A DNA stretch of 64,000 nt from Candidatus Thorarchaeota archaeon (GCA_048882385.1 JBHLRQ010000004.1:13470-77469); one strand, 5' to 3'; positions 2,740 through 13,369 are shown, numbered from the stretch's first letter. Numbers and translations: made by a program. The notes: generated by a model not told the origin, from the sequence alone.

Positions 2740-3507
2740 TTAATCCTCCCTTTTCTGAAACATTATTGCGATGGGAGAGTTCGCCTGACGCCATTCCGCG
2801 AGTTTGCCTTCGTAATCTAGAGGAACTGGATGGCGACCATGATTGCCAATTACGATAAATAGAGTCCCAACTCTTGCTTGTCTAAGAAGCACTTTGATCC
2901 AGTTGTCAGTTCGACGCACAATTTTCTCTAGAAGTGTTTTTGGCGGAGTTCTGTGTCCATATTGTGCATAAAGGCTCTCAAAGTCCAAGAAGTGAAGATA
3001 CAAAAGTTCGCTTTTGAAGATGTGTTTTGTTGCCTCGATATAGGTGGCCATATCGTCTCTGGGTCGAACTGTAAATGCAGGGTCGAAATCACATTGAACC
3101 ATGTCTTCTTCACGGCAAATAACTTTGGTTACTTTTCCGGAGTTCCTGACATGTTTGATAAGGTGGAAGTCAGTTCTATGACCTTTCAGTAGTCTTTTGA
3201 TGAGAGGTAACGCATAAGGATCAGTAGTTTCAAGTAGAGCCAAAGCTTCCATGTTTTTAATAAGAGCCTCAGGTTTGTACACCACTGCTTCAAAGAGTCC
3301 GAAGTTGTCAATCATAATTATGACAACTGCCTTCGGATTGAATTTCTGTAGCAACTCTTCATTTGGAGGAAAGAGTCCTTCAGGAATCTCTATACCTAGT
3401 AATTTCAAGACTGTCGCAGGAAACTCTAATGCTGTGGTTCGTACCTGTGGAAACGACATTCCTCTTCCTCGGTGGTGTTCCTGTTTTTGTTCGTAAATCC
3501 GCCTCAA
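2740..3507 (-). CDS. hypothetical protein, possibly alkaline-phosphatase-superfamily (phosphodiesterase/PglZ-like)
   Basis: IIMIDNFG and IGNHGRH resemble the metal-ligand motifs of AlkP-superfamily enzymes, but the match is weak. The start may be M17 at 3459. Confidence 0.4.
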   Translation of the reverse strand: MRRIYEQKQEHHRGRGMSFPQVRTTALEFPATVLKLLGIEIPEGLFPPNEELLQKFNPKAVVIIMIDNFGLFEAVVYKPEALIKNMEALALLETTDPYALPLIKRLLKGHRTDFHLIKHVRNSGKVTKVICREEDMVQCDFDPAFTVRPRDDMATYIEATKHIFKSELLYLHFLDFESLYAQYGHRTPPKTLLEKIVRRTDNWIKVLLRQARVGTLFIVIGNHGRHPVPLDYEGKLAEWRQANSPIAIMFQKRED

Positions 3508-3513
3508 TAAGGT

Positions 3514-4593
3514 TTGGTAGATAGGCTCTGCAGTAATGTATCTGCTGCATATTCTTCAAGCTTCTTTAACCTATGGCCGATGGAAGAGTTAAAAAACTCA
3601 CCCGAGCCTCGAACCTCAAGGGGCAAACCAATGACTCTTCGGGACATCATATACAAAGACACTGTCAAGTTCATCCTATCTGGGGGAAAAGGAGGAGTAG
3701 GAAAAACTAGCACAGCAGGAGCTATGGCAGTGCTATCTGCAAGGCATGGTTTTCGTACATTAGTACTCTCTACTGATCCAGCACATAGTCTAAGTGATAG
3801 TTTTGACCAAGATCTCTCTGGAGGAGAAGTAATTCCGATACAGGGCTTTGACAATCTTTGGGGCATGGAGGTAAATACAGCAAAAGGAATGGAACAATTC
3901 CAACAAGCCATGGGAGAAGGCACAATAGGTCCTGAAGCACAAATGGCTGCAGGTCTGATGGGCGATATGACAGGAATGGCACCTCCTGGTTCTGATGAGG
4001 CAATGGCTTTTGGCAAAATTCTTGAATTTATTGAAGACTCCTCATACGATCGGGTTATTTTCGACACTGCACCCACTGGGCACACACTTAAACTACTTGA
4101 ACTACCGGACCTTTTGGATAGCTGGTTGGGCAAAATACTGACTATGAGACAACGACTCAGCTCCATGATGTCAGGACTGCGTAGTATGTTTGGAGGCGGG
4201 GATCAAGAAGACTCCTCTTGGCAAATGATTCAGCAGACGAAAGACAAGATATATGCAGCAAGAGTCGAATTATCAGACCCTGATACAACTCAGTTTGTTG
4301 TAGTGATGATTCCTGAAGCAATGGCAGTTTTTGAAACACAACGCCTGTTGGCAAGCCTCGACTCTTGGCACATTCCAGCCACCCATTTGATAGTCAATCA
4401 ACTAGTACCTCCAAATCCATCATGCAAGTTCTGTTCAAAACGGCACGAAATGCAAGAGGCTAATATGGTTGATATTCGAGAGTTGTACTCAGACCTAGAC
4501 CTGACAGAAGTCCCACAATTCGAAGGAGAGATAAGAGGGATTGAGGGTCTCACAAAACTGGGCAAGATACTCATCGGAGAAGCTGAGGAATAA
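3514..4593 (+). CDS. ArsA/Get3 (TRC40)-family ATPase
   Basis: P-loop GGKGGVGKTS, STDPAHSLSD and DTAPTGHTLKLLELP signatures. The true start is probably ATG 3580 or 3631, because the first 22-39 codons look non-conserved. Confidence 0.85.
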   Translation: MVDRLCSNVSAAYSSSFFNLWPMEELKNSPEPRTSRGKPMTLRDIIYKDTVKFILSGGKGGVGKTSTAGAMAVLSARHGFRTLVLSTDPAHSLSDSFDQDLSGGEVIPIQGFDNLWGMEVNTAKGMEQFQQAMGEGTIGPEAQMAAGLMGDMTGMAPPGSDEAMAFGKILEFIEDSSYDRVIFDTAPTGHTLKLLELPDLLDSWLGKILTMRQRLSSMMSGLRSMFGGGDQEDSSWQMIQQTKDKIYAARVELSDPDTTQFVVVMIPEAMAVFETQRLLASLDSWHIPATHLIVNQLVPPNPSCKFCSKRHEMQEANMVDIRELYSDLDLTEVPQFEGEIRGIEGLTKLGKILIGEAEE

Positions 4594-4595
4594 GA

Positions 4596-4694
4596 ATGAG
4601 ACACTCAACAAAGAGAAAACTGATGTCGCTCTGTATGGTTCTTCTTTTCCTAGGTTCATTTGCAATAGCAATATTCCTCATGTACAGGCCTTGA
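4596..4694 (+). CDS. 32-aa single-pass membrane micro-ORF (hypothetical)
   Basis: ATG lies 3 nt after the Get3 stop. MRHSTKRKLMSLCMVLLFLGSFAIAIFLMYRP has a basic N-terminus followed by one C-terminal hydrophobic helix. Too short for the ORF track. Confidence 0.3.
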   Translation: MRHSTKRKLMSLCMVLLFLGSFAIAIFLMYRP

Positions 4695-4710
4695 CCTGAA
4701 TAGACAAAAA

Positions 4711-4853
4711 CTAGACTCCTTTGACTCGTTTTACGACAGGCGGACGGATTTTGTAGAGAATCCGGCCGCCGCAGTAGGGCACTTGACGCCGGGAAGGGTC
4801 TTCAATCCTTCTGGCGTTACTTCCTTATGGCACTTGTGGCATACGTAAACCAT
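4711..4853 (-). CDS. rpoP: DNA-directed RNA polymerase subunit P (Rpo12/RpoP, Rpb12 homologue); frame interrupted by 1 nt as assembled
   Basis: MVYVCHKCHKEVTPEGLKTLPGVKC then, in the -1 frame, PYCGGRILYKIRPPVVKRVKGV. This equals the archaeal RpoP pattern CxxC...LPGVxCPYCG. Frame 0 instead ends at TAA 4731-4733. Adding one C to the C3 run (plus-strand ggg 4777-4779) restores a 47-aa protein. Confidence 0.7.
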
Positions 4854-4922
4854 TCTTGAAATTCACTCCTTCATATTGTTTGAACATCTCCTCTGGAATG
4901 ATATCGCAATAAGAAGTTTGTC

Positions 4923-4988
4923 TTAAGGACTCTCCTTCAGACCTTCAGGAGTAACTTCCTTGTGGCATTTATGACAAACGTAAACCAT
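4923..4988 (-). CDS. 21-codon ORF duplicating the RpoP N-terminus (MVYVCHKCHKEVTPEGLKESP)
   Basis: The first 18 aa are identical to rpoP, with 10 synonymous and 0 non-synonymous nucleotide differences. GGTGA lies 5 nt upstream of the ATG. Whether it is functional is unknown. Confidence 0.35.
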   Translation of the reverse strand: MVYVCHKCHKEVTPEGLKESP

Positions 4989-5035
4989 TCCAGTCACCAA
5001 TATGAGTGGAATTCTAAGGCAATATGAAGCTTTTC

Positions 5036-6640
5036 TTACGACACACGTGTATCAGACTCCTGAACTACCTCACCAGCCACCAATCCACTACTCAACACAT
5101 CCTTGATTCTAACTGAAAGAAGGGTACCTGATGAGAATCCGCCTTGAACTGTCATGAGTGGACCCTCTTCGAAGGGATACACCATAGTGAAACCGTGATG
5201 GGTCTTTGAAGGTTCAGCAGCAATTCCTCGAACTATTGTTCCAACGTATTGTTCCTTTTTCCTACGATTGATTTTCTCTGCTTCCTTTCTGAGTCTAAGC
5301 CCATGTTCATCCTTTTTCGAAGACTCAGGAAAATCAGCAAACGCAGAACCTGGTAATGCACGAAAACCATAGAGGATTATTCTCTCAGCTCCAGATTCAC
5401 TGACATCTCGCATCATCCGGATTGATTGCTCAGTTGTTTCTGCGTTCTCTCCAGGGAGACCGTATATGAGATACACAAATGGTTTCATTCCATATTTCTG
5501 TGCAATCTTCACAGCTTGGATTACATCTCCCGAGTTACCACATTTCCCAATCTGTTGCATATGATAATCAGAACCAGTTTCAAGACCTATGTTGGGAGAA
5601 CTGGAAATCATTGATTCTATGAGTGTCTTGGCTACATCTTCTGTAAACAAACAAGCTTTCATGTTTTCAATTGCAATGTGAATAGAGCCTTCCCGAACTT
5701 GGGGTAAGGAGTTTAACTTGCCGAGAAGATCTCTTATCGCAACCAAGTTTGCGGGAGGATGACAGGGGTCAGTCAACGGTTCTGTACCCCGTTTGTAATC
5801 TAGAAATCCTGGAGCCTCAAGAACAACCCTATGAACATCAAGATCAACCAGCTCTTGCACTTCTTTGACAATGGAATCTACTGACCGACTTCTTGGAGGT
5901 CCCCATGTACCTGGCACGCTGCAGAATCCACATCCAGGAGGTATAGATTCCGGACAATTCATCCTAACTTTTGCTACTTCAGAGTCGCAGTTTTCACAAT
6001 CCGTGCACTTACTTCCATCTGGTAGAGGAAGTTTAGTGCGTTTGAAATTCGAGCAACCACGAAGTATCTCAACATAGACTTTGCTTGCCTGATAGACAGG
6101 ATAGTCTATAATGCGAACAGTTGAAGGAAAATACTTCTCAGAGAATTCAGCCGCTGAGAGTAAGCTTCGAAACTTGGTCATGTGGATCTTTCCAGACTTG
6201 ATGAATGCGATACCAGGAATCTCTGATAATGAATTGCAATTGTTAAGAGCGTCTGTTCTTAGGATGTCATCGAGTGTCGCTTCACCTTCGCCAATGACCA
6301 CAATATCAGGTTTAATCTCAGTGAGTGTCCTTTCAGGTTCTGCTGAAATTGGACCTCCAATAATCACCCTGCCTTTTTGATTCGCCTGACGCCATAATCG
6401 GACTACTTTTTTTGTCGCGGACAGATCCATTGTCATTGCACTGACTGCCATGTGATCAAATCGACGGAGAAGGCTTCTCTTGGATAGTATATCTTCCACG
6501 CGATGTATTCTGCAGTCCAGCTGGTGTTTTTCAAAGAGTCCAGCCACAGTGCGAGGACCACAGCCTATTGAATCACGCGAACTACTTCTTTGACCTGACC
6601 CTGCACTGAGTGCATCAACAATCAGTATTCGATCCTTCAT
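5036..6640 (-). CDS. radical SAM protein with N-terminal B12-binding-like domain and C-terminal TRAM-like domain
   Basis: Starts MKDRILIVDALS (Rossmann-like domain). RGC...GCGFCSV cluster cysteines, then a C-terminal beta-rich segment VGTIVRGIAAEP...LLSVRIKDV. Start set at ATG 6640 because the 77 upstream codons of the track ORF overlap aIF1. Confidence 0.75.
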   Translation of the reverse strand: MKDRILIVDALSAGSGQRSSSRDSIGCGPRTVAGLFEKHQLDCRIHRVEDILSKRSLLRRFDHMAVSAMTMDLSATKKVVRLWRQANQKGRVIIGGPISAEPERTLTEIKPDIVVIGEGEATLDDILRTDALNNCNSLSEIPGIAFIKSGKIHMTKFRSLLSAAEFSEKYFPSTVRIIDYPVYQASKVYVEILRGCSNFKRTKLPLPDGSKCTDCENCDSEVAKVRMNCPESIPPGCGFCSVPGTWGPPRSRSVDSIVKEVQELVDLDVHRVVLEAPGFLDYKRGTEPLTDPCHPPANLVAIRDLLGKLNSLPQVREGSIHIAIENMKACLFTEDVAKTLIESMISSSPNIGLETGSDYHMQQIGKCGNSGDVIQAVKIAQKYGMKPFVYLIYGLPGENAETTEQSIRMMRDVSESGAERIILYGFRALPGSAFADFPESSKKDEHGLRLRKEAEKINRRKKEQYVGTIVRGIAAEPSKTHHGFTMVYPFEEGPLMTVQGGFSSGTLLSVRIKDVLSSGLVAGEVVQESDTRVS

Positions 6641-6783
6641 TATTTTCTTGTCTACAATCCATAGCTGGTTCTTTACTGTTCCTAGAAGGGATAATTGCCA
6701 CAACTCATAGCACTTATATGGCGCTAGGGACACATCTCTCTCCAGTACAAAGTACAACCTAAAACTAAGGAGTATAATACTGC

Positions 6784-7128
6784 GTGAGCGACGACGAAGG
6801 TGGAATATGCCCGAATTGTGGTTTGCCTCAGGACCTATGCGTCTGTGAAACGATTGCACAGGAAGAGGCAAGAATTTCTGTGACTATCGAACGACGAAAA
6901 TGGGGTCGACTGACAACTGTTGTTGAAGGTTTTGACAAAAATATCGACCTCGGTGATTTGGCTACGAAATTGAAAGGTAAGCTAGCATGTGGTGGTGCTG
7001 CAAAGCATGGTCACATAGAGCTTCAGGGAGATCATCGAGGAGTCATACAAGAAGTATTGGCGAAGCTAGGATTCCCAGAAGAGATGGTTCAGGTGGACTG
7101 GACCTTCCAAAGAACTGGTAGAAGGTAA
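6784..7128 (+). CDS. sui1: translation initiation factor aIF1 (SUI1)
   Basis: GTG start. N-terminal CPNCGLPQDLCVC zinc knuckle followed by the SUI1 fold RISVTIERRKWGRLTTVVEGF...KLACGG...IELQGDHR. Confidence 0.9.
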   Translation: MSDDEGGICPNCGLPQDLCVCETIAQEEARISVTIERRKWGRLTTVVEGFDKNIDLGDLATKLKGKLACGGAAKHGHIELQGDHRGVIQEVLAKLGFPEEMVQVDWTFQRTGRR

Positions 7129-7189
7129 AACATCTGGTGCCTTCTGGGGAATTTTCCTCTAGTTCTATTCTTTTGAAAATTAGTCAGAA

Positions 7190-8185
7190 TCATGTTCCAA
7201 GGGTCATCGAGTTGATTCCAAGTTTCTTCACAATCTCTTTGTATCTGTTGCGGACAGTGACCTCTGTTACTCTGGCTACTTCTGCAATCTCACGTTGAGT
7301 CCTCCGCTCATCTAACATGATTGAAGCAACATAGATAGCTGCAGCAGCCAAACCCAAGGGATCACGACCAATCGTGAGACCTATGTCTCTACTTCTCTGA
7401 AGAATTTCTACAGTTCTTAGTTGTACAGGACTGGATAATGATAGTTGAGAAGCAAACCGAGATATGTAATCAATAGGATTACTAAGTGGGATCTTAATTG
7501 CAAGACTTCTAAGAAGTAGACGATAACATTGTCCAAGCTTCTTTTTATCAACACGAGATGCATCAGCAACTTCGTCTAAAGGACGAGGTTTCAGTCGTAT
7601 CCTGCAGGCGGCATAGAGCGTTGCAGCTACCATGGCCTCGATGGACCTACCTCTCACAAGCTTTTGGATGATTGATTTTCTATAGAGAAGCGCAGCCAAC
7701 TCACGAATAGGACCAGGTATGCCAAGCTGTGATGACAATCGTTCAAGCTCTGACATTGCTTGAGCCAGATTACGATCCATACTTGAGTGAACGCGAGACC
7801 GTATCTGCCATTTACGTAGCCTGTAAATCTCGGATCTTCTCGTTGGGCTCAGTTTTTTACCTGACGTGTCCCTGTCACGCCAGTCAATTACTGTTGATAG
7901 TCCCTTATCGTGTACTGTATAACGTACCGGGGCTCCCACACGGCTCCGAGCGTCACTCTCCTCTGCACTGAAAGCTCTCCACTCGGCACCAGTATCAATT
8001 CGATGATCTGATAGAACAAGACCACATCCGCCGCAAACCCTCTCTCCACGAGTTAGGTCTTCAACAACAGAAGCTGAACCACATTCAGAACAAGATGGTG
8101 GTTCAATAGAAGTTTCTACAGTCCCCTTTCTATCATTAGCACTCCGCGTCCGGTCCAATGCCTCTCTCTCTCCACCAGAGTCCAT
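7190..8185 (-). CDS. tfb: transcription initiation factor IIB (TFB)
   Basis: N-terminal zinc ribbon CSECGSASVVEDLTRGERVCGGCGLVL, B-finger/linker and two cyclin-fold repeats (AATLYAACR, AAAIYVASI). Confidence 0.95.
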   Translation of the reverse strand: MDSGGEREALDRTRSANDRKGTVETSIEPPSCSECGSASVVEDLTRGERVCGGCGLVLSDHRIDTGAEWRAFSAEESDARSRVGAPVRYTVHDKGLSTVIDWRDRDTSGKKLSPTRRSEIYRLRKWQIRSRVHSSMDRNLAQAMSELERLSSQLGIPGPIRELAALLYRKSIIQKLVRGRSIEAMVAATLYAACRIRLKPRPLDEVADASRVDKKKLGQCYRLLLRSLAIKIPLSNPIDYISRFASQLSLSSPVQLRTVEILQRSRDIGLTIGRDPLGLAAAAIYVASIMLDERRTQREIAEVARVTEVTVRNRYKEIVKKLGINSMTLGT

Positions 8186-8357
8186 GGTTCCGAAAAAAAC
8201 CGCCAGATATCACTGACAAGTTATAGACCCAATGACAGTCTCCCGGTACCCACAACAAAACATCTGGGAAAATTTTCTTTTAATTGTTCTGGGTTAACTG
8301 ATGAAGCCTTCTACGAATCATAAACTAATGTTTGTTCATGCACAGAAGCATACAAAA

Positions 8358-9320
8358 CTAGGTTGTCTTCTCATGACCTCGTTCTGTTATGATGATTGTA
8401 TGCTCATTTTGCGAAACAAATTCTCCTTTTTCTTCAGCAAGGATGTTGTGTCCAAAGAGTGCACCGTTCTTCTCAAGTTCCTTGATAGCCATCTCGAGAG
8501 AGGCAGGTGACATCTGTTCAGCTATCCACCGTTTAGCAAATGGAAACTCTTTGTAGTTCTTCCTAGCTATGCCTAAGAACTGCTTTGTACCCTTAAACCG
8601 AACTGGTACCCTGACAGGGAGTAATTGATAGATAAGAGGTCGTGGTTGATCAGAGATGTTTCCAGAACCTGTACTCGCAAAGGTTTCTATTGCATAGACT
8701 TCGCCTTCCTCAACAAGTACCTCAGACTTGCCTGAAACACAAGGAACCTGTTTATCAGCGTGAAGCTCATACTCTTTCAATTGATGACCTGACAGTTGTT
8801 TTATTGGTTCAAATCCAGCTGATTGAATTGTATCTTCAATCAGTGCACCAATTGTGTTCAGTTTAGCACCAGGACGCATCATCTGGATGGCCACATTGGT
8901 AGCATCAACTGAAGCCTTGACCAAAGCCTCATGATCGGGATTGAGAGCAATCGTGAATGCTGTATCAGCAATACAGCCATCGACATGAGACCCACAATCT
9001 ACAGTTACAAGGTCACCCTCTTCAATGACAGTTTCATCATTCAAGGGCGATGTGTAGTGTGCTGCAACATTGTTCAAAGCCACATTACATGGAAAGGAAG
9101 TTCCCGATGAGTTTTCGCGAATGTAGTTCTCAACTGTGTCGATTATATCAATGACCTTTGTTCCTGGTTTCACCATAGGTCTTGCTAGGTCGAGAGCTTC
9201 ACGGGCGACGACTCCAGCGCGACGCCATTTGTCCCAAGGATCTTCTGATTCATCTTCTGGTTTATCAACGGGCTTATCCTCTGCCACGATATCACCAACT
9301 CTTTGGCTCGTGTAGGGCAA
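8358..9320 (-). CDS. map: type 2 methionine aminopeptidase
   Basis: Pita-bread fold motifs (FPCNVALNNVAAHYTP, DCGSHVDGCIADTAFT, SGHQL, EHTIIIT). TTG start at 9320 gives an acidic ~30-aa N-terminal extension. The start is uncertain. Confidence 0.85.
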   Translation of the reverse strand: MPYTSQRVGDIVAEDKPVDKPEDESEDPWDKWRRAGVVAREALDLARPMVKPGTKVIDIIDTVENYIRENSSGTSFPCNVALNNVAAHYTSPLNDETVIEEGDLVTVDCGSHVDGCIADTAFTIALNPDHEALVKASVDATNVAIQMMRPGAKLNTIGALIEDTIQSAGFEPIKQLSGHQLKEYELHADKQVPCVSGKSEVLVEEGEVYAIETFASTGSGNISDQPRPLIYQLLPVRVPVRFKGTKQFLGIARKNYKEFPFAKRWIAEQMSPASLEMAIKELEKNGALFGHNILAEEKGEFVSQNEHTIIITERGHEKTT

Positions 9321-9352
9321 GCCAGATAAAATTGACGGAAAGACCAGACCTA

Positions 9353-9748
9353 CTACGATAGAACCTTCTCAATCCTCTTAGCAATACGTGTCATCATGAA
9401 GAACATGTAGCCAATGTTAGCACGTTTGTTTGTGAGTACAGCTAGACTGGCATCAGCTCCTGCATCGCAGATGATGACATAACCAGTTTCACCCTCAATC
9501 AACATTCTAACGAGAGGACCACGTTTCAACTGCTTGAAGACTTTCCTTGTTGCTTCCTGGATTTGGGTGGATCTTCCTGCTATCACATCCTCATCAGGGA
9601 TTCTACTATCATCCATTCCTTCAGGATAGTGAGTACAAATAGTAAGACCCTGTGATTTCGAAATGATAGCGCTTGCTTCGACATTTCCCTGTGACGCCCG
9701 ACTCAAGTCGAGAAGAAGCTCATTCAACATTTCGGTTTTTGAGGACAA
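9353..9748 (-). CDS. Roadblock/LC7 (MglB-like) domain protein
   Basis: 131 aa with the typical Roadblock pattern: LLLDLSRASQGNVEASAIISKSQGLTI...GYVIICDAGADASLAVLTNKRANIG. Confidence 0.7.
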   Translation of the reverse strand: MSSKTEMLNELLLDLSRASQGNVEASAIISKSQGLTICTHYPEGMDDSRIPDEDVIAGRSTQIQEATRKVFKQLKRGPLVRMLIEGETGYVIICDAGADASLAVLTNKRANIGYMFFMMTRIAKRIEKVLS

Positions 9749-9796
9749 AGTAACGCATCTCCATGGCGCCTTTCAGTCAAAAAGGATGTCAAGTAT

Positions 9797-10573
9797 TTAA
9801 ACTCTCTTGGCGCCTGCTATCTTGAGACCTTTTACTATCTTTGCCAATCCTTCTCCTCTATCTTTCTGAATATGTTTTTCAAGATAGGTCCCCTGCACAA
9901 CTATAGAAGCTCCAGCTTCAACAGCCATGACAACTGATTTTTCATCGTTAAATCCGCCGCCAGTGATTAGTGGAATATCAATGAACTTAGAAACAGTGGC
10001 AATCATTTCAGGAGGTACTCCACCACCTTCTGCGCCACTACCAGCTTCAAGGTAAACCAGTTTCATCCCAAGTAACTCTGCTGCAATTGCGTACATCGTA
10101 GGCAGCTTAGGTTTGTCTCGTAGGAAGGGCTTGGCATCACCAACCCATGATGCAGTCTTTCCTGGAGCCACCATAAGATATGCCATTGGAATTGTTTCAA
10201 TTCCTGTGAGTTTTATTTTTGGTGCAGCTAGTGCTTGGGCACCAATTATGTAGTATGGGTTCGTACTGTTCAGGAGTGACATGAAGAAAATTGCATCTGC
10301 ATGTTCTGAAACGCCGGTGATATTACCGGGGAACAAGATGGTTGGAATCTCCACAGCTTCGCTAATCTTTTCTACGGCATCATCAATGACACCAAAAATC
10401 GTACTACCGCCAATCATGATTGCATCACTGCCTGCTTTCTCAGCGAGAGTAGCAATCTCTACAACATTTTCAATTGATGTAGACATTGGATCAGGGTCGA
10501 GGAGCGAGAAATGACAAGCACCCTCAGACTCTAGTTTTTCAGTGATGTACTTCCAAACCTTACCGGCCATCAT
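9797..10573 (-). CDS. geranylgeranylglyceryl phosphate synthase (PcrB/GGGPS family)
   Basis: TIM-barrel pattern: HFSLLDPDP, IMIGGS, ILFPGN, YLEAGSGA, PLITGGGF. Confidence 0.85.
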   Translation of the reverse strand: MMAGKVWKYITEKLESEGACHFSLLDPDPMSTSIENVVEIATLAEKAGSDAIMIGGSTIFGVIDDAVEKISEAVEIPTILFPGNITGVSEHADAIFFMSLLNSTNPYYIIGAQALAAPKIKLTGIETIPMAYLMVAPGKTASWVGDAKPFLRDKPKLPTMYAIAAELLGMKLVYLEAGSGAEGGGVPPEMIATVSKFIDIPLITGGGFNDEKSVVMAVEAGASIVVQGTYLEKHIQKDRGEGLAKIVKGLKIAGAKRV

Positions 10574-10816
10574 AAAGTCTCCAACTATTGAAATCCCGTC
10601 TTGACGTACTTTTTACGCTTTTGGTGAACCAATAGTAATTACTTCAAGACCAATATAAAATATAGTCCCAACTGTAATGTTCGATTACATCAATCGATGG
10701 ATTATTCCTATCAGAAAATGAAATATCGTGAAGGGATTATGCCCGTTATTCTCAACCTTTATTACCAGTTTTGAATGAAGCTCGCAAGTTGTGTTCTGCT
10801 GAACGAGGCCCCATAT

Positions 10817-13369
10817 ATGACCACAAGCGACCCTAAAGGAAGTAGTTCTGAATCTTCTGAAATAGAGGTTGTTTCAACAGGTTCAGAGCTCCGCATCGGA
10901 GTCTTTCCATGCAAGTGTGGGAAGAATATTGGTGCAGTAGTAGACATCGATGCTGTGGCAGAGTATGCAAAAACACTTCCAGGCGTAGCGTTTGTACAAG
11001 TCAATCGATATACCTGTGCAGATCCAGGACAGAGAGAGATTGAAGAAGCCATCACCGAGCATGGTCTCAATAGGGTGGTCGTAGCATCTTGCAGTCCAAC
11101 CATGCATGAGGATACATTCAGAAAAGCGGTGAAGGCCGCAGGACTCAATCCGTATCTCTGCATAATGGCCAATATTCGGGAGCACGTTTCATGGGTCCAC
11201 CGTGATGATCCAATAGCAGCCACACAGAAGGCTATGGACCTTGTCGCCATGTCTGTGGCAAAAGCTGCCACACTCGAACCACAGAAGGAATTGGATGTTC
11301 CAGTAACACAGGCTGCTCTTGTGGTGGGAGCGGGAGTTGCTGGCATGCAGGCAGCTCTTGATCTTGCTGATGCTGGTTTTAAGGTCCATCTTGTTGAGAA
11401 AGAACCGACAATAGGCGGAATCATGGCAATCCTAGACAAGGTTTTTCCACAAAATGATTGTAGTATCTGCATCCTCGGACCCAAGATGGTGGATGTAGCA
11501 AAGCATCCGAACATCAATCTCATCACTATGGCGGAAGTACAAACAATATCAGGGTATGTTGGAAACTTCCATGTTCGAGTTAAACAACGAGCACGATTTG
11601 TGGACATTGACAAATGTACATCATGTGGTGACTGCGTCGAAGTTTGTCCAGTTGATGTACCAAGTAGAACAGATCAGAGTCTGACTTGGCAGAAAGCTAT
11701 ACAGATACCATTCCCACAGGCAGTCCCTTCATCATATTTTATTGACCCCAACTCCTGCCTTGGTATGGACTTGATACGGTGTGGGAAGTGTATAGATCGA
11801 TGTGAACAAGAAGCAATTGTTTCCTCGGACCAAGATCGATATATAGACTTTGAAGCTGGAGTCATAATCCTAGCAACTGGTTTTAAACCTGCAAATCCAG
11901 AGAAGATACCTCGTCTTGGGTGGGGTAGATATCCAAACGTAATAACTACACTTGAGTTCGAGAGACTGATTAATGCAGCAGGGCCTACTGAGGGCAATCT
12001 TGTTCGACCCTCAGACCTAGTCAAACCAACTTCAGTAGCAATAGCTCAGTGTGTAGGATCACGAAGCATTGATACGAGACCAGCTTGTTCGAATTTCTGT
12101 TGTGCTGAATCAGTGAAATGCGCCTTGTTGATTAAAGAACACTATCCTGACACTGAAGTCACCATTTACTATCAGGATCTTAGAATGCATGGCAAGTACT
12201 TTGAAGATCAATATCTTAAGGCGAGAGAAGAAGGTGTAAAGTTTGTTCGTGGGAGGGTTGGTGAGATTCAGCAGTTCCCAAAGACAAAGAACCTCCGAGT
12301 GAGTGTTGAAGATACAACGCACAACAAATTAGTAATGGTAGATTATGATATGGTCATTTTGTCTATGGGAGCAGAAGGTCAGTCAGGGAATTTTCCAATA
12401 CCAATATCTTGTACAGCAGACTCATTTTACATAGAATCACATCCAAAATTGAGACCTGTAGATACTAGCTCGGCAGGCGTATTCATCTGCGGAGGAGCTG
12501 AGAGTCCTAAAGATATTAGAGATTCTGTCATCCAAGCGAGTGCTGCAGCTGGTCGAGCGGCGATAATCCTTCAGAAAGGCCGTTACCCGATAGAAGCACT
12601 CAGTGCTCGAATTATGCAAGACAAATGCAATAGATGCGGCACATGTGTAAAACGTTGCCCTTATGGTGCAATCTCACAGGATGGCACGGGCAAGTTCACT
12701 GTAATGGGAGCCCTCTGTCAGGCATGTGGAACATGTGCAGGTGATTGTCCAAAAGATGCCATTTACATGCCCAATTTCACAAATGAGCAGATTGAGGCTC
12801 AGATAGAAATTGCGCTGGCTGAGGAACCTGAGGACAAGATTGTAGCGTTCGCTTGTGCATTCTGTTCCTATCGAGGCTCAGATCTCGCAGGTGTTTCAAG
12901 AATGCAGTATCCACCTAACGCCAGAGTGATCAGGTCTATGTGTTCCGGACGATACTCAGTTAAATTCGCACAAAAAGCGTTTGAACTTGGTGCAGGAGCT
13001 GTACTCTATTCAGGATGCCATCTTCCAGCAGATTGTCACTTTCAAACTGGAAATCATTGGATGGCCAAACGAGAGCCGAGAATCAGAGGATGGATGAAGA
13101 GGAATAACATAGATGATGACCGCTTCCGAGTGGAATGGGTTTCTGCTGGAGAAGGAAAGAAGTGGCAAAATATCATGAGCGAGATGGCGGAAGTCACTGA
13201 GAAGTATAAGAAGATTAAACCCAAGGCTAAGAAACCAACTGCTAAGCCAAAAACGGACCCAAAATCAAAACCAAAGTCTAAATCAAAAGCAAAGCCCAAA
13301 AAGAAGACAAAGCCAAAGACTAGTAGCACAAAAAAGAGTGCTCCCAAGAAGAAGACAGGGGGGAAGTGA
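10817..13369 (+). CDS. hdrA: heterodisulfide reductase subunit A fused to an MvhD domain, with Lys/Pro-rich C-terminal tail
   Basis: N-terminal CKCGKNIG cluster, FAD site VVGAGVAGMQAALDLA and several CxxCxxCxxxCP motifs identify HdrA. DKIVAFACAFCSY...CSGR...SGCHLPADCHF is an MvhD domain fused in frame. The last ~55 aa are KPK-rich. ATG 10817 has GAGG ~10 nt upstream; ATG 10775 is also possible. Confidence 0.85.
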   Translation: MTTSDPKGSSSESSEIEVVSTGSELRIGVFPCKCGKNIGAVVDIDAVAEYAKTLPGVAFVQVNRYTCADPGQREIEEAITEHGLNRVVVASCSPTMHEDTFRKAVKAAGLNPYLCIMANIREHVSWVHRDDPIAATQKAMDLVAMSVAKAATLEPQKELDVPVTQAALVVGAGVAGMQAALDLADAGFKVHLVEKEPTIGGIMAILDKVFPQNDCSICILGPKMVDVAKHPNINLITMAEVQTISGYVGNFHVRVKQRARFVDIDKCTSCGDCVEVCPVDVPSRTDQSLTWQKAIQIPFPQAVPSSYFIDPNSCLGMDLIRCGKCIDRCEQEAIVSSDQDRYIDFEAGVIILATGFKPANPEKIPRLGWGRYPNVITTLEFERLINAAGPTEGNLVRPSDLVKPTSVAIAQCVGSRSIDTRPACSNFCCAESVKCALLIKEHYPDTEVTIYYQDLRMHGKYFEDQYLKAREEGVKFVRGRVGEIQQFPKTKNLRVSVEDTTHNKLVMVDYDMVILSMGAEGQSGNFPIPISCTADSFYIESHPKLRPVDTSSAGVFICGGAESPKDIRDSVIQASAAAGRAAIILQKGRYPIEALSARIMQDKCNRCGTCVKRCPYGAISQDGTGKFTVMGALCQACGTCAGDCPKDAIYMPNFTNEQIEAQIEIALAEEPEDKIVAFACAFCSYRGSDLAGVSRMQYPPNARVIRSMCSGRYSVKFAQKAFELGAGAVLYSGCHLPADCHFQTGNHWMAKREPRIRGWMKRNNIDDDRFRVEWVSAGEGKKWQNIMSEMAEVTEKYKKIKPKAKKPTAKPKTDPKSKPKSKSKAKPKKKTKPKTSSTKKSAPKKKTGGK

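Follow-up and report, generated by a model that had tools for sequence, protein, structure and literature searches.

The window analysed here is a stretch of 64,000 nucleotides from a Thorarchaeota (Asgard) archaeon (GCA_048882385.1). At the orthologous position, it carries the gene order TFIIB, SUI1, radical SAM, rpoP, arsA, which is conserved in relatives. RpoP (Rpo12) is an archaeal RNA polymerase subunit of approximately 47 amino acids, with two CxxC zinc knuckles and a basic C-terminal tail. The features of the locus are as follows.

5036..6733, minus strand: gene for a B12-binding radical SAM protein (Pfam PF04055 and PF02310), the conserved upstream neighbour of rpoP
5036-5038, minus strand: TAA stop codon of the radical SAM gene, inside promoter-like motif 1
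5019..5038, minus strand: promoter-like motif 1, TAAGAAAAGCTTCATATTGC, one of two matches in the window, followed by a short leader, the clade-typical ATTGGTGACTGGA, and ATG
4923..4988, minus strand: stub ORF, MVYVCHKCHKEVTPEGLKESP and stop, made up of rpoP codons 1-18 (probably of the resident allele) plus ESP; a putative orphan 5' remnant
4934..4935, no strand: putative illegitimate junction, where GAGAG, 5 nt upstream of motif 2, follows directly on codon 18 (AAG)
4729..4934, minus strand: diverged, L017-like patch of 206 nt, with promoter motif, long leader, and codons 1 to ~41
4906..4925, minus strand: promoter-like motif 2, TAAGACAAACTTCTTATTGC, which matches the motif type of L017, L076, L077, and L089
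4854..4905, minus strand: long L017-type leader, GTTCAAAC...GGAG (GGAG at 4866-4869), recognized by alignment to L017 and preceding the second ATG
4711..4853, minus strand: full-length frameshifted rpoP copy of 143 nt, with a frame-0 stop at 4731-4733 and the canonical stop TAG at 4711-4713
4736..4772, minus strand: GC-rich hairpin, GCGGCGG.CCGGAU...AUCCG.UCCGC, made by atypical codons of the patch
4711..4728, minus strand: rpoP tail common to both haplotypes; the right-hand crossover would lie in this tail or in identical DNA beyond it
3631..4593, plus strand: gene for an ArsA/Get3-type ATPase (Pfam PF02374), the conserved convergent downstream neighbour

The radical SAM gene was called at 565 amino acids on identical DNA in two other contigs (L022 and L025); by exact look-up this call is on record, and a 534-amino-acid call is not.

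The ATGs at 4988 and 4853 each open the peptide MVYVCHKCHKEVTPEGLK, and a repeat finder delimits a direct repeat of 56 nt (4800-4855 versus 4935-4990, spacing 135 nt, 82% identity). Within the 54 coding nucleotides the copies differ at 10 positions, nine of them third positions and the remaining one a CTG/TTG pair. Sequence and translation confirm what a preliminary description of this DNA had reported, namely that both ATGs begin the same peptide and that all 10 differences are synonymous. The 54 nt contain ~10.3 synonymous sites, and the probability that 10 of 10 random substitutions would be synonymous is ~7e-8. The copies use different codons at 10 of 18 places, against the 10.3 expected from random choice among synonymous codons, and their nucleotide identity is therefore no more than the protein forces. 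Synonymous sites of the downstream copy are saturated with respect to the stub, and nowhere are the two copies identical over more than 13 nt.

The upstream copy ends after 21 codons at TAA 4923-4925, as was also described. This TAA, which closes the stub ORF, is part of motif 2 and is the counterpart of the radical SAM stop codon. The promoter-like motif TAAGAMAARCTTCWTATTGC has exactly two matches in the 64 kb (5019-5038 and 4906-4925; 0 expected by chance), one preceding each copy, so that the repeated unit comprises the motif, a leader (5' UTR), and 18 codons. The motif, which may be a BRE/TATA element, is conserved 5' of rpoP in many Thorarchaeota species, and at most loci the radical SAM gene upstream has its stop codon in the TAA of the motif. 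The 81-nt spacer between the copies consists of promoter and leader only, and a search of Rfam with 4400-5300 returned nothing meaningful. The description of a synonymous-only repeat was thus partly confirmed, being real in its core and wrong in two details: the flanks of the upstream copy are not unrelated, since the motif stands before each copy, and the downstream copy does not continue as RpoP, because one base is missing at 4776-4781.

The Frameshifted Downstream Copy

In frame 0 the 143-nt downstream copy (4853..4711) reads MVYV...KCPTAAAGFSTKSVRLS up to the stop at 4731-4733, and the canonical C-terminus, YCGGRILYKIRPPVVKRVKGV and stop, is encoded in another frame. Alignment to relatives places the absent base at AAGTG-CCCTAC, shifting the frame after codon 26. 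The resulting 40-amino-acid product loses Cys28 and the basic tail, and the stub carries CHKC only. In sequence, synteny, and repaired translation the locus is that of RpoP/Rpo12 (Rpb12, RPABC4; PF03604, Zn_ribbon_RPAB4): after repair of the one base, the 47-amino-acid translation equals the intact Thorarchaeota RpoP of other species (P0024) and matches PF03604 with 27.9 bits, against a cut-off of 24. Unlike the zinc-ribbon subunit, however, neither copy encodes a complete four-cysteine ribbon in one frame, and the actual 40-amino-acid product reaches the gathering score of no Pfam family, that of RpoP/Rpo12 included; an exact look-up of this product found nothing on record. The locus has no intact rpoP ORF, and there is no other rpoP within the 64-kb window.

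All Thorarchaeota rpoP genes examined are in frame. The codons that follow the frameshift still encode the canonical residues, and the loss of the base is therefore recent. The frameshifted haplotype is nevertheless dominant in at least three assemblies, on three flank-SNP backgrounds, a situation difficult to square with a gene that is essential and single-copy. The allele may be only mildly deleterious, the cell may be polyploid and heterozygous, unbinned DNA may carry a second copy, or recoding may occur at a low level. In this natural population, the sole copy that can be detected of a gene for an RNA polymerase subunit is frameshifted. Automatic annotation made no rpoP call in MAG contigs spanning the locus (L022), and such missing calls would wrongly lower estimates of completeness from marker genes.

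Recoding would take the form of a -1 P-site slip of tRNA-Pro on C-CCU, aided by the lineage-specific downstream hairpin, to yield full-length RpoP. If it occurred, it would keep an essential RNA polymerase subunit alive in an Asgard archaeon; we regard it as improbable. The 90-nt stretch 4711-4800 has a minimum free energy of -29.4 kcal/mol (z -2.7), and its hairpin is less strong in L017; the clade-typical alleles of L001 and L018 lack it. The site reads G TGC CCT ACT, which is no slippery heptamer of the form X XXY YYZ; only the P-site slip CCU to CCC is possible there, and the A-site ACU cannot re-pair. The hairpin (4736-4772) starts ~3 nt after the frameshift site, and stimulatory structures are expected 5-9 nt downstream. 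A canonical programmed -1 frameshift was rejected, the site having no heptamer, a hairpin that is probably too close, and no conservation. The synonymous codons of the downstream copy that form the hairpin are GGC GGC CGG ... CGT CCG CC.

Haplotypes and Relatives

The arrangement recurs in other material of the same species. The 51-kb contig L022 (GCA_048882805.1) matches window positions 2784-11128 with 0 gaps and 7 SNPs, none of them between 4174 and 9124, and the Logan contig L011 (SRR24270831) matches 3152-4982, also with 0 gaps, including the frameshift, the spacer, and most of the stub. Both have the joint at 4934/4935, and the aligned flanks of same-species contigs are at least 99.5% identical. 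An assembly chimera of co-occurring strains or species might be considered, as several short-read contigs of the species break in or near rpoP and as the gene is unusually conserved between co-occurring species, which confuses assembly graphs (the contig ends of TEKIR_12S are an example). The joint, however, has no shared k-mer, and with a longest exact match of 13 nt between the copies no k-mer path could create it; the same gap-free structure is present, moreover, in two NCBI assemblies with different SNPs and in the unitig-based Logan contig from a separate run. The structure is not an assembly artefact, and a chimeric origin can be given hardly any weight.

A different haplotype is represented by L010 (SRR30758835), which has the same arsA flank and is identical to the window from 4728 downwards, with two SNPs (3187 and 4173) as the only exceptions. 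Starting at 4729, its rpoP 3' part is a clade-typical allele (AGA ATT CTG TAT AAG ATA CGT CCA CCA GTC GTC AAG), closest to that of L018, the nearest species on the arsA side. It departs from the window at 8 positions in 4729-4756, all synonymous in the canonical frame. The species thus has at least two haplotypes that differ in the patch 4729-4934, the alternative one being seen over 37 diagnostic bases only, on one Logan contig. No same-species contig with an intact gene was found when contigs encoding intact RpoP (P0024) were re-queried.

Other same-species contigs end at 4728, 4942, 4953, and 4970. Six independent short-read contigs (L009, L010, L011, L024, L025, and L120) end in or beside rpoP, at window positions 4728-4982. 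Such ends fit coexisting haplotypes, k-mers in common with co-occurring species, or both. There is also a sister strain or species, represented by L029 (ERZ27271387), which is 96.8% identical over window positions 6579-7656. Two apparent leads were set aside. The "two rpoP loci" of TEKIR_12S (L099 2501-2652 and L102 1-150) are overlapping contig ends, identical at 141 of 141 nt and produced by an assembly break. The terminase-like proteins (161-324 amino acids, "terminase large subunit-like") in the 90% cluster of P0024 contain no RpoP segment and look like a clustering artefact.

More than 100 loci from other Thorarchaeota each have a single in-frame 47-amino-acid rpoP, and none has a second 5' copy. 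In relatives, rpoP starts ~47-80 nt after the radical SAM stop; the stub, starting 47 nt after it, is therefore at the ancestral position. All 18 of its codons are the commonest ones in the subclade (the species encoding an identical protein), and it is identical to several species at 49-52 of 54 nt. Codons that the clade uses rarely or not at all occur in the downstream copy (e.g., CAT9, ACG13, GTA41, and CGA43). Its best nucleotide match to any relative is 117/143, and its mean identity to relatives, 79% in the 5' part and 77% in the 3' part, is at saturation. Among subclade rpoP genes the pairwise identity is 69-98%, with means of 88% (5' part) and 82% (3' part), and flanking genes are 70-82% identical to those of the window. 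The downstream copy, at 77-79%, is an outlier among subclade rpoP.

For the 81-nt spacer with the leader of the downstream copy, the only homologous sequence is the long rpoP leader of L017 (GCA_054182195.1), which has the form GTTCAAAC...AGGAG...ATTTC. The downstream copy also has in common with L017 the rare codons CGG31, CTC33, and TGC25 and the hairpin. In leader 1, upstream of the stub, a short middle part resembling L017 (CTTAGAATTCC) is joined to the widespread ATTGGTGACTGGA, as would be expected of resident sequence in a lineage near L017.

L017 is the only relative of a donor that we found. Among GTDB species representatives, 80 of 96 tblastn-confirmed hits were examined, and neither these nor JGI metagenomes nor phage and plasmid collections yielded a donor with the allele of the downstream copy: in the JGI metagenomes, a scan for an exact 29-mer of this copy and a search for a degenerate pattern of L017-type leader plus peptide both found nothing, and there was no match in phage (tblastn) or plasmid (blastn) collections.

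Several features of the region in relatives may be recorded. The promoter and leader (GTCCTAAGAAAAGCTTCATATTGC ... GGTGACTGGAATG) together with the first 54 nt of the gene have a mean pairwise identity of 88%, and of 93-98% among the closest alleles; promoter and leader were compared between window positions 4989-5038 and the regions upstream of rpoP in L001, L013, L015, L018, L021, L032, L044, L045, and L049. Such high identity at the tiny rpoP, against 70-82% in the flanks, suggests constraint on synonymous sites or gene flow. The gap between the radical SAM gene and rpoP is 199-403 nt in L015, L017, and L018, compared with ~50-80 nt elsewhere. That of L015 (2701-3000) may contain a small hydrophobic ORF, that of L018 (2507-2910) has a run of N and a truncated radical SAM call, and that of L017 lies in the region 2801-3000.

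These comparisons bear on a rival origin of the direct repeat, duplication in place of a 125-135-nt unit, followed by long purifying selection and with the 21-codon ORF serving as a micro-protein or a regulatory uORF. All 10 differences are synonymous, as this reading would have it, and the stub keeps the promoter-like motif, a Shine-Dalgarno-like GGTGA, and an ATG, for which reason it is predicted to be transcribed and translated. A duplication old enough for synonymous saturation should, however, be present in relatives, and it occurs in 0 of >100 loci; it is polymorphic among strains that are at least 99.5% identical in their aligned flanks. The stub, moreover, is the clade consensus, while the supposed working copy is aberrant and frameshifted, and a single CxxC knuckle in 21 amino acids makes no zinc ribbon. 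Tandem duplication is largely refuted and retains a very low probability.

The coding roles that the preliminary description had envisaged for the upstream copy did not hold up either. Functionality of the 21-codon ORF is not supported, given the absence of a second 5' copy from the >100 Thorarchaeota loci, the repeat being present in the same-species contigs L022 and L011. A longer product of the -1 frame fares no better, its peptide being missing from the sole homologous leader, that of L017; no conserved upstream ORF, leader peptide, or micro-protein was found. The likeness of DIIPEEMFK, in a non-coding frame of the spacer (4881-4905, minus strand), to DYIPEEMFR, at the N-terminus of the Hsp20 (window 29556, plus strand), had been pointed out as a curiosity. 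It is judged to be due to chance (17/27 nt) and does not extend to the leader of L017.

A Recombination Scar as the Probable Origin

We consider that the locus is probably a recombination scar, with one illegitimate junction, between two diverged Thorarchaeota rpoP loci, and not a working duplicate. Import by recombination from a diverged rpoP was one of the options of the preliminary description, and of its overall reading this is the part that stands, the functional short ORF and the longer -1 product having fallen away. The stub is clade-typical and the downstream copy with its spacer is L017-like; polymorphism within the species and a mirror-image scar at the same gene in other species (see below) also back an import.

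The following course of events would account for the structure. The resident locus would have consisted of the radical SAM gene, the promoter motif, a short leader, a 47-codon rpoP, and the convergent arsA. A short piece of DNA bearing promoter motif, long leader, and rpoP would have come from an unsampled lineage related to L017, in which the gene would have been intact. On the 3' side, a homologous crossover would have taken place in the rpoP tail, at or below 4728. On the 5' side, the incoming DNA would have been joined illegitimately, directly after resident codon 18, possibly via a short TGAAGG repeat. Resident codons 19 to ~41 would thereby have been replaced, and the resident promoter and codons 1-18 stranded as the stub, which would read three codons into incoming DNA and stop at the TAA of the incoming promoter motif. 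The incoming copy would have lost one base, during the event or since.

Some elements of this scheme can be seen directly in the sequence. The junction reads CC-TGAAGG-TC-TGAAGG-AGAG, in which the repeated TGAAGG is a putative microhomology. Both the sequence and its alignment to relatives place the joining of codon 18, 5 nt upstream of a promoter motif, at a clearly non-homologous position. The recipient-type allele is seen in part, in L010; on the donor side there is the L017 relative only.

A dead fragment with exclusively synonymous changes is an apparent paradox, which is resolved if the copies are orthologues from different lineages joined by recombination. In its own lineage each would have been an intact gene evolving under selection, hence the identical protein and the saturated synonymous sites, and synonymous-only divergence then needs no selection on the stub, contrary to what had been argued from it; the stub peptide itself is probably functionless. 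To our knowledge, the recombination biology of Asgard archaea is almost a blank, and the locus would provide evidence, at the level of sequence, for short-patch exchange of DNA between lineages with an illegitimate junction in these organisms.

On the sequence evidence, unit 1 (the stub) is likely to be resident and unit 2 (the patch) incoming. L017 features occur in both leaders (CTTAGAATTCC in leader 1 and GTTCAAAC...AGGAG in leader 2), and with both of them L017-like in part this polarity is not proven. In the reverse case, the L017-like downstream copy with its long leader would be resident, and the end of a clade-typical leader with codons 1-18 would have been imported upstream of it; L010 would then be an import of a longer clade-typical piece. 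In keeping with this, the divergence of the downstream copy from relatives (77-79%) is about that of the flanking genes (70-82%), rare codons (CGA and GGA) like those of the downstream copy are present in the shared tail 4711-4728, and three flank-SNP backgrounds carry the duplicated haplotype, against one for the other haplotype. Leader 1, on the other hand, is a mix of the lineage-specific middle also found in L017 and the widespread ancestral Shine-Dalgarno region, and is therefore resident-like and unlike an import from any sampled clade-typical species. The reverse order also needs two imports instead of one, and in the L012/L020 case described below the truncated clade-typical fragment is demonstrably resident. 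We judge reverse polarity unlikely.

The patch could also have come from within the cell, by ectopic gene conversion from a second intact rpoP on the chromosome or on a mobile element, or as the remnant of an integrated element. Its length of ~206 nt, with very short homology at both ends, fits an intracellular donor, and a second intact copy supplying RpoP would make the frameshift harmless and explain its survival; the L012/L020 insertion shows, in addition, that rpoP ends can flank inserted cargo. Against such a donor, there is one rpoP locus per MAG among the 80 of 96 GTDB-representative hits examined, the overlapping contig ends of TEKIR_12S being the only exception, and an allele of the type of the downstream copy occurs in none of these 80 loci. 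The 64-kb window has no other rpoP, the phage and plasmid collections gave no matches, and the copies are separated by just the 81-nt spacer, free of integrase and cargo. An intracellular source seems to us somewhat less probable still than reversed polarity.

Possible Homology-Facilitated Recombination and a Parallel Scar

Two groups of loci in other species (L012/L035 and L020/L038) have a comparable structure at the other end of the gene. Here the 5' part of rpoP is clade-typical and the 3' part atypical, and the gene is followed by a 1.94-kb insertion containing a 57-amino-acid ORF and an M28/DUF4910 peptidase. After the insertion, and adjoining arsA, lies an orphan, clade-typical rpoP 3' fragment (codons ~25-47), which differs from the 3' end of the full gene by synonymous changes only, with E instead of K in one further codon at the edge. 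The insertion region (3001-5151 in L012, 2183-4333 in L020) thus lies between direct repeats of the rpoP 3' end that have diverged; no integrase is visible in the L012/L020 insertion. L021 (1986-2129), with 92.5% identity, represents the empty site, and the truncated clade-typical piece is demonstrably the resident allele.

Integrative elements are known to target the end of a gene, classically a tRNA gene, and to carry a substitute copy of it, which duplicates the att site. The insertion of L012 and L020 likely follows this pattern. The scar in the window resembles att-duplicating elements in its diverged direct repeats of a gene end and in an incoming copy that restores a full-length gene. 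It differs from them in that the window is without element, integrase, or cargo between the repeats, where the 81 nt are promoter and leader only, and neither phages nor plasmids gave a match.

A closer parallel is homology-facilitated illegitimate recombination, known from bacteria with natural transformation and from conjugation in E. coli (PMC3240628); the mechanism at rpoP would resemble it. As in that process (PMC3240628), there would be one homologous crossover and one illegitimate joint, possibly at a microhomology, so that part of the recipient gene is stranded by a small mosaic insertion and replacement. Divergence is confined to a segment, with identity below position 4729, 8 differences in 4729-4756, and flanks at least 99.5% identical. 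In contrast to the described cases, there is a natural scar only, in an uncultured Asgard archaeon, and the homologous 3' anchor may be as short as ~18 nt, which is short for the classical process. So read, the scar is a natural example of an already known kind of event.

There is some likeness, too, to the sequential displacement of effector genes outlined for Vibrio cholerae T6SS effector/immunity arrays (PMC5361080). As far as that outline goes, an incoming diverged allele likewise displaces the resident one and leaves a remnant beside a conserved flank. In the window, unlike the arrays as outlined, the remnant consists of 18 codons from an essential housekeeping gene and has no orphan function that could be selected, and a single event is involved, not an array.

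With the L012/L020 insertion, two independent scars would have formed at one gene of 144 nt. Together they suggest that rpoP, tiny and highly conserved, may with its ultra-conserved promoter repeatedly serve as an anchor through which foreign DNA is imported between Thorarchaeota lineages.
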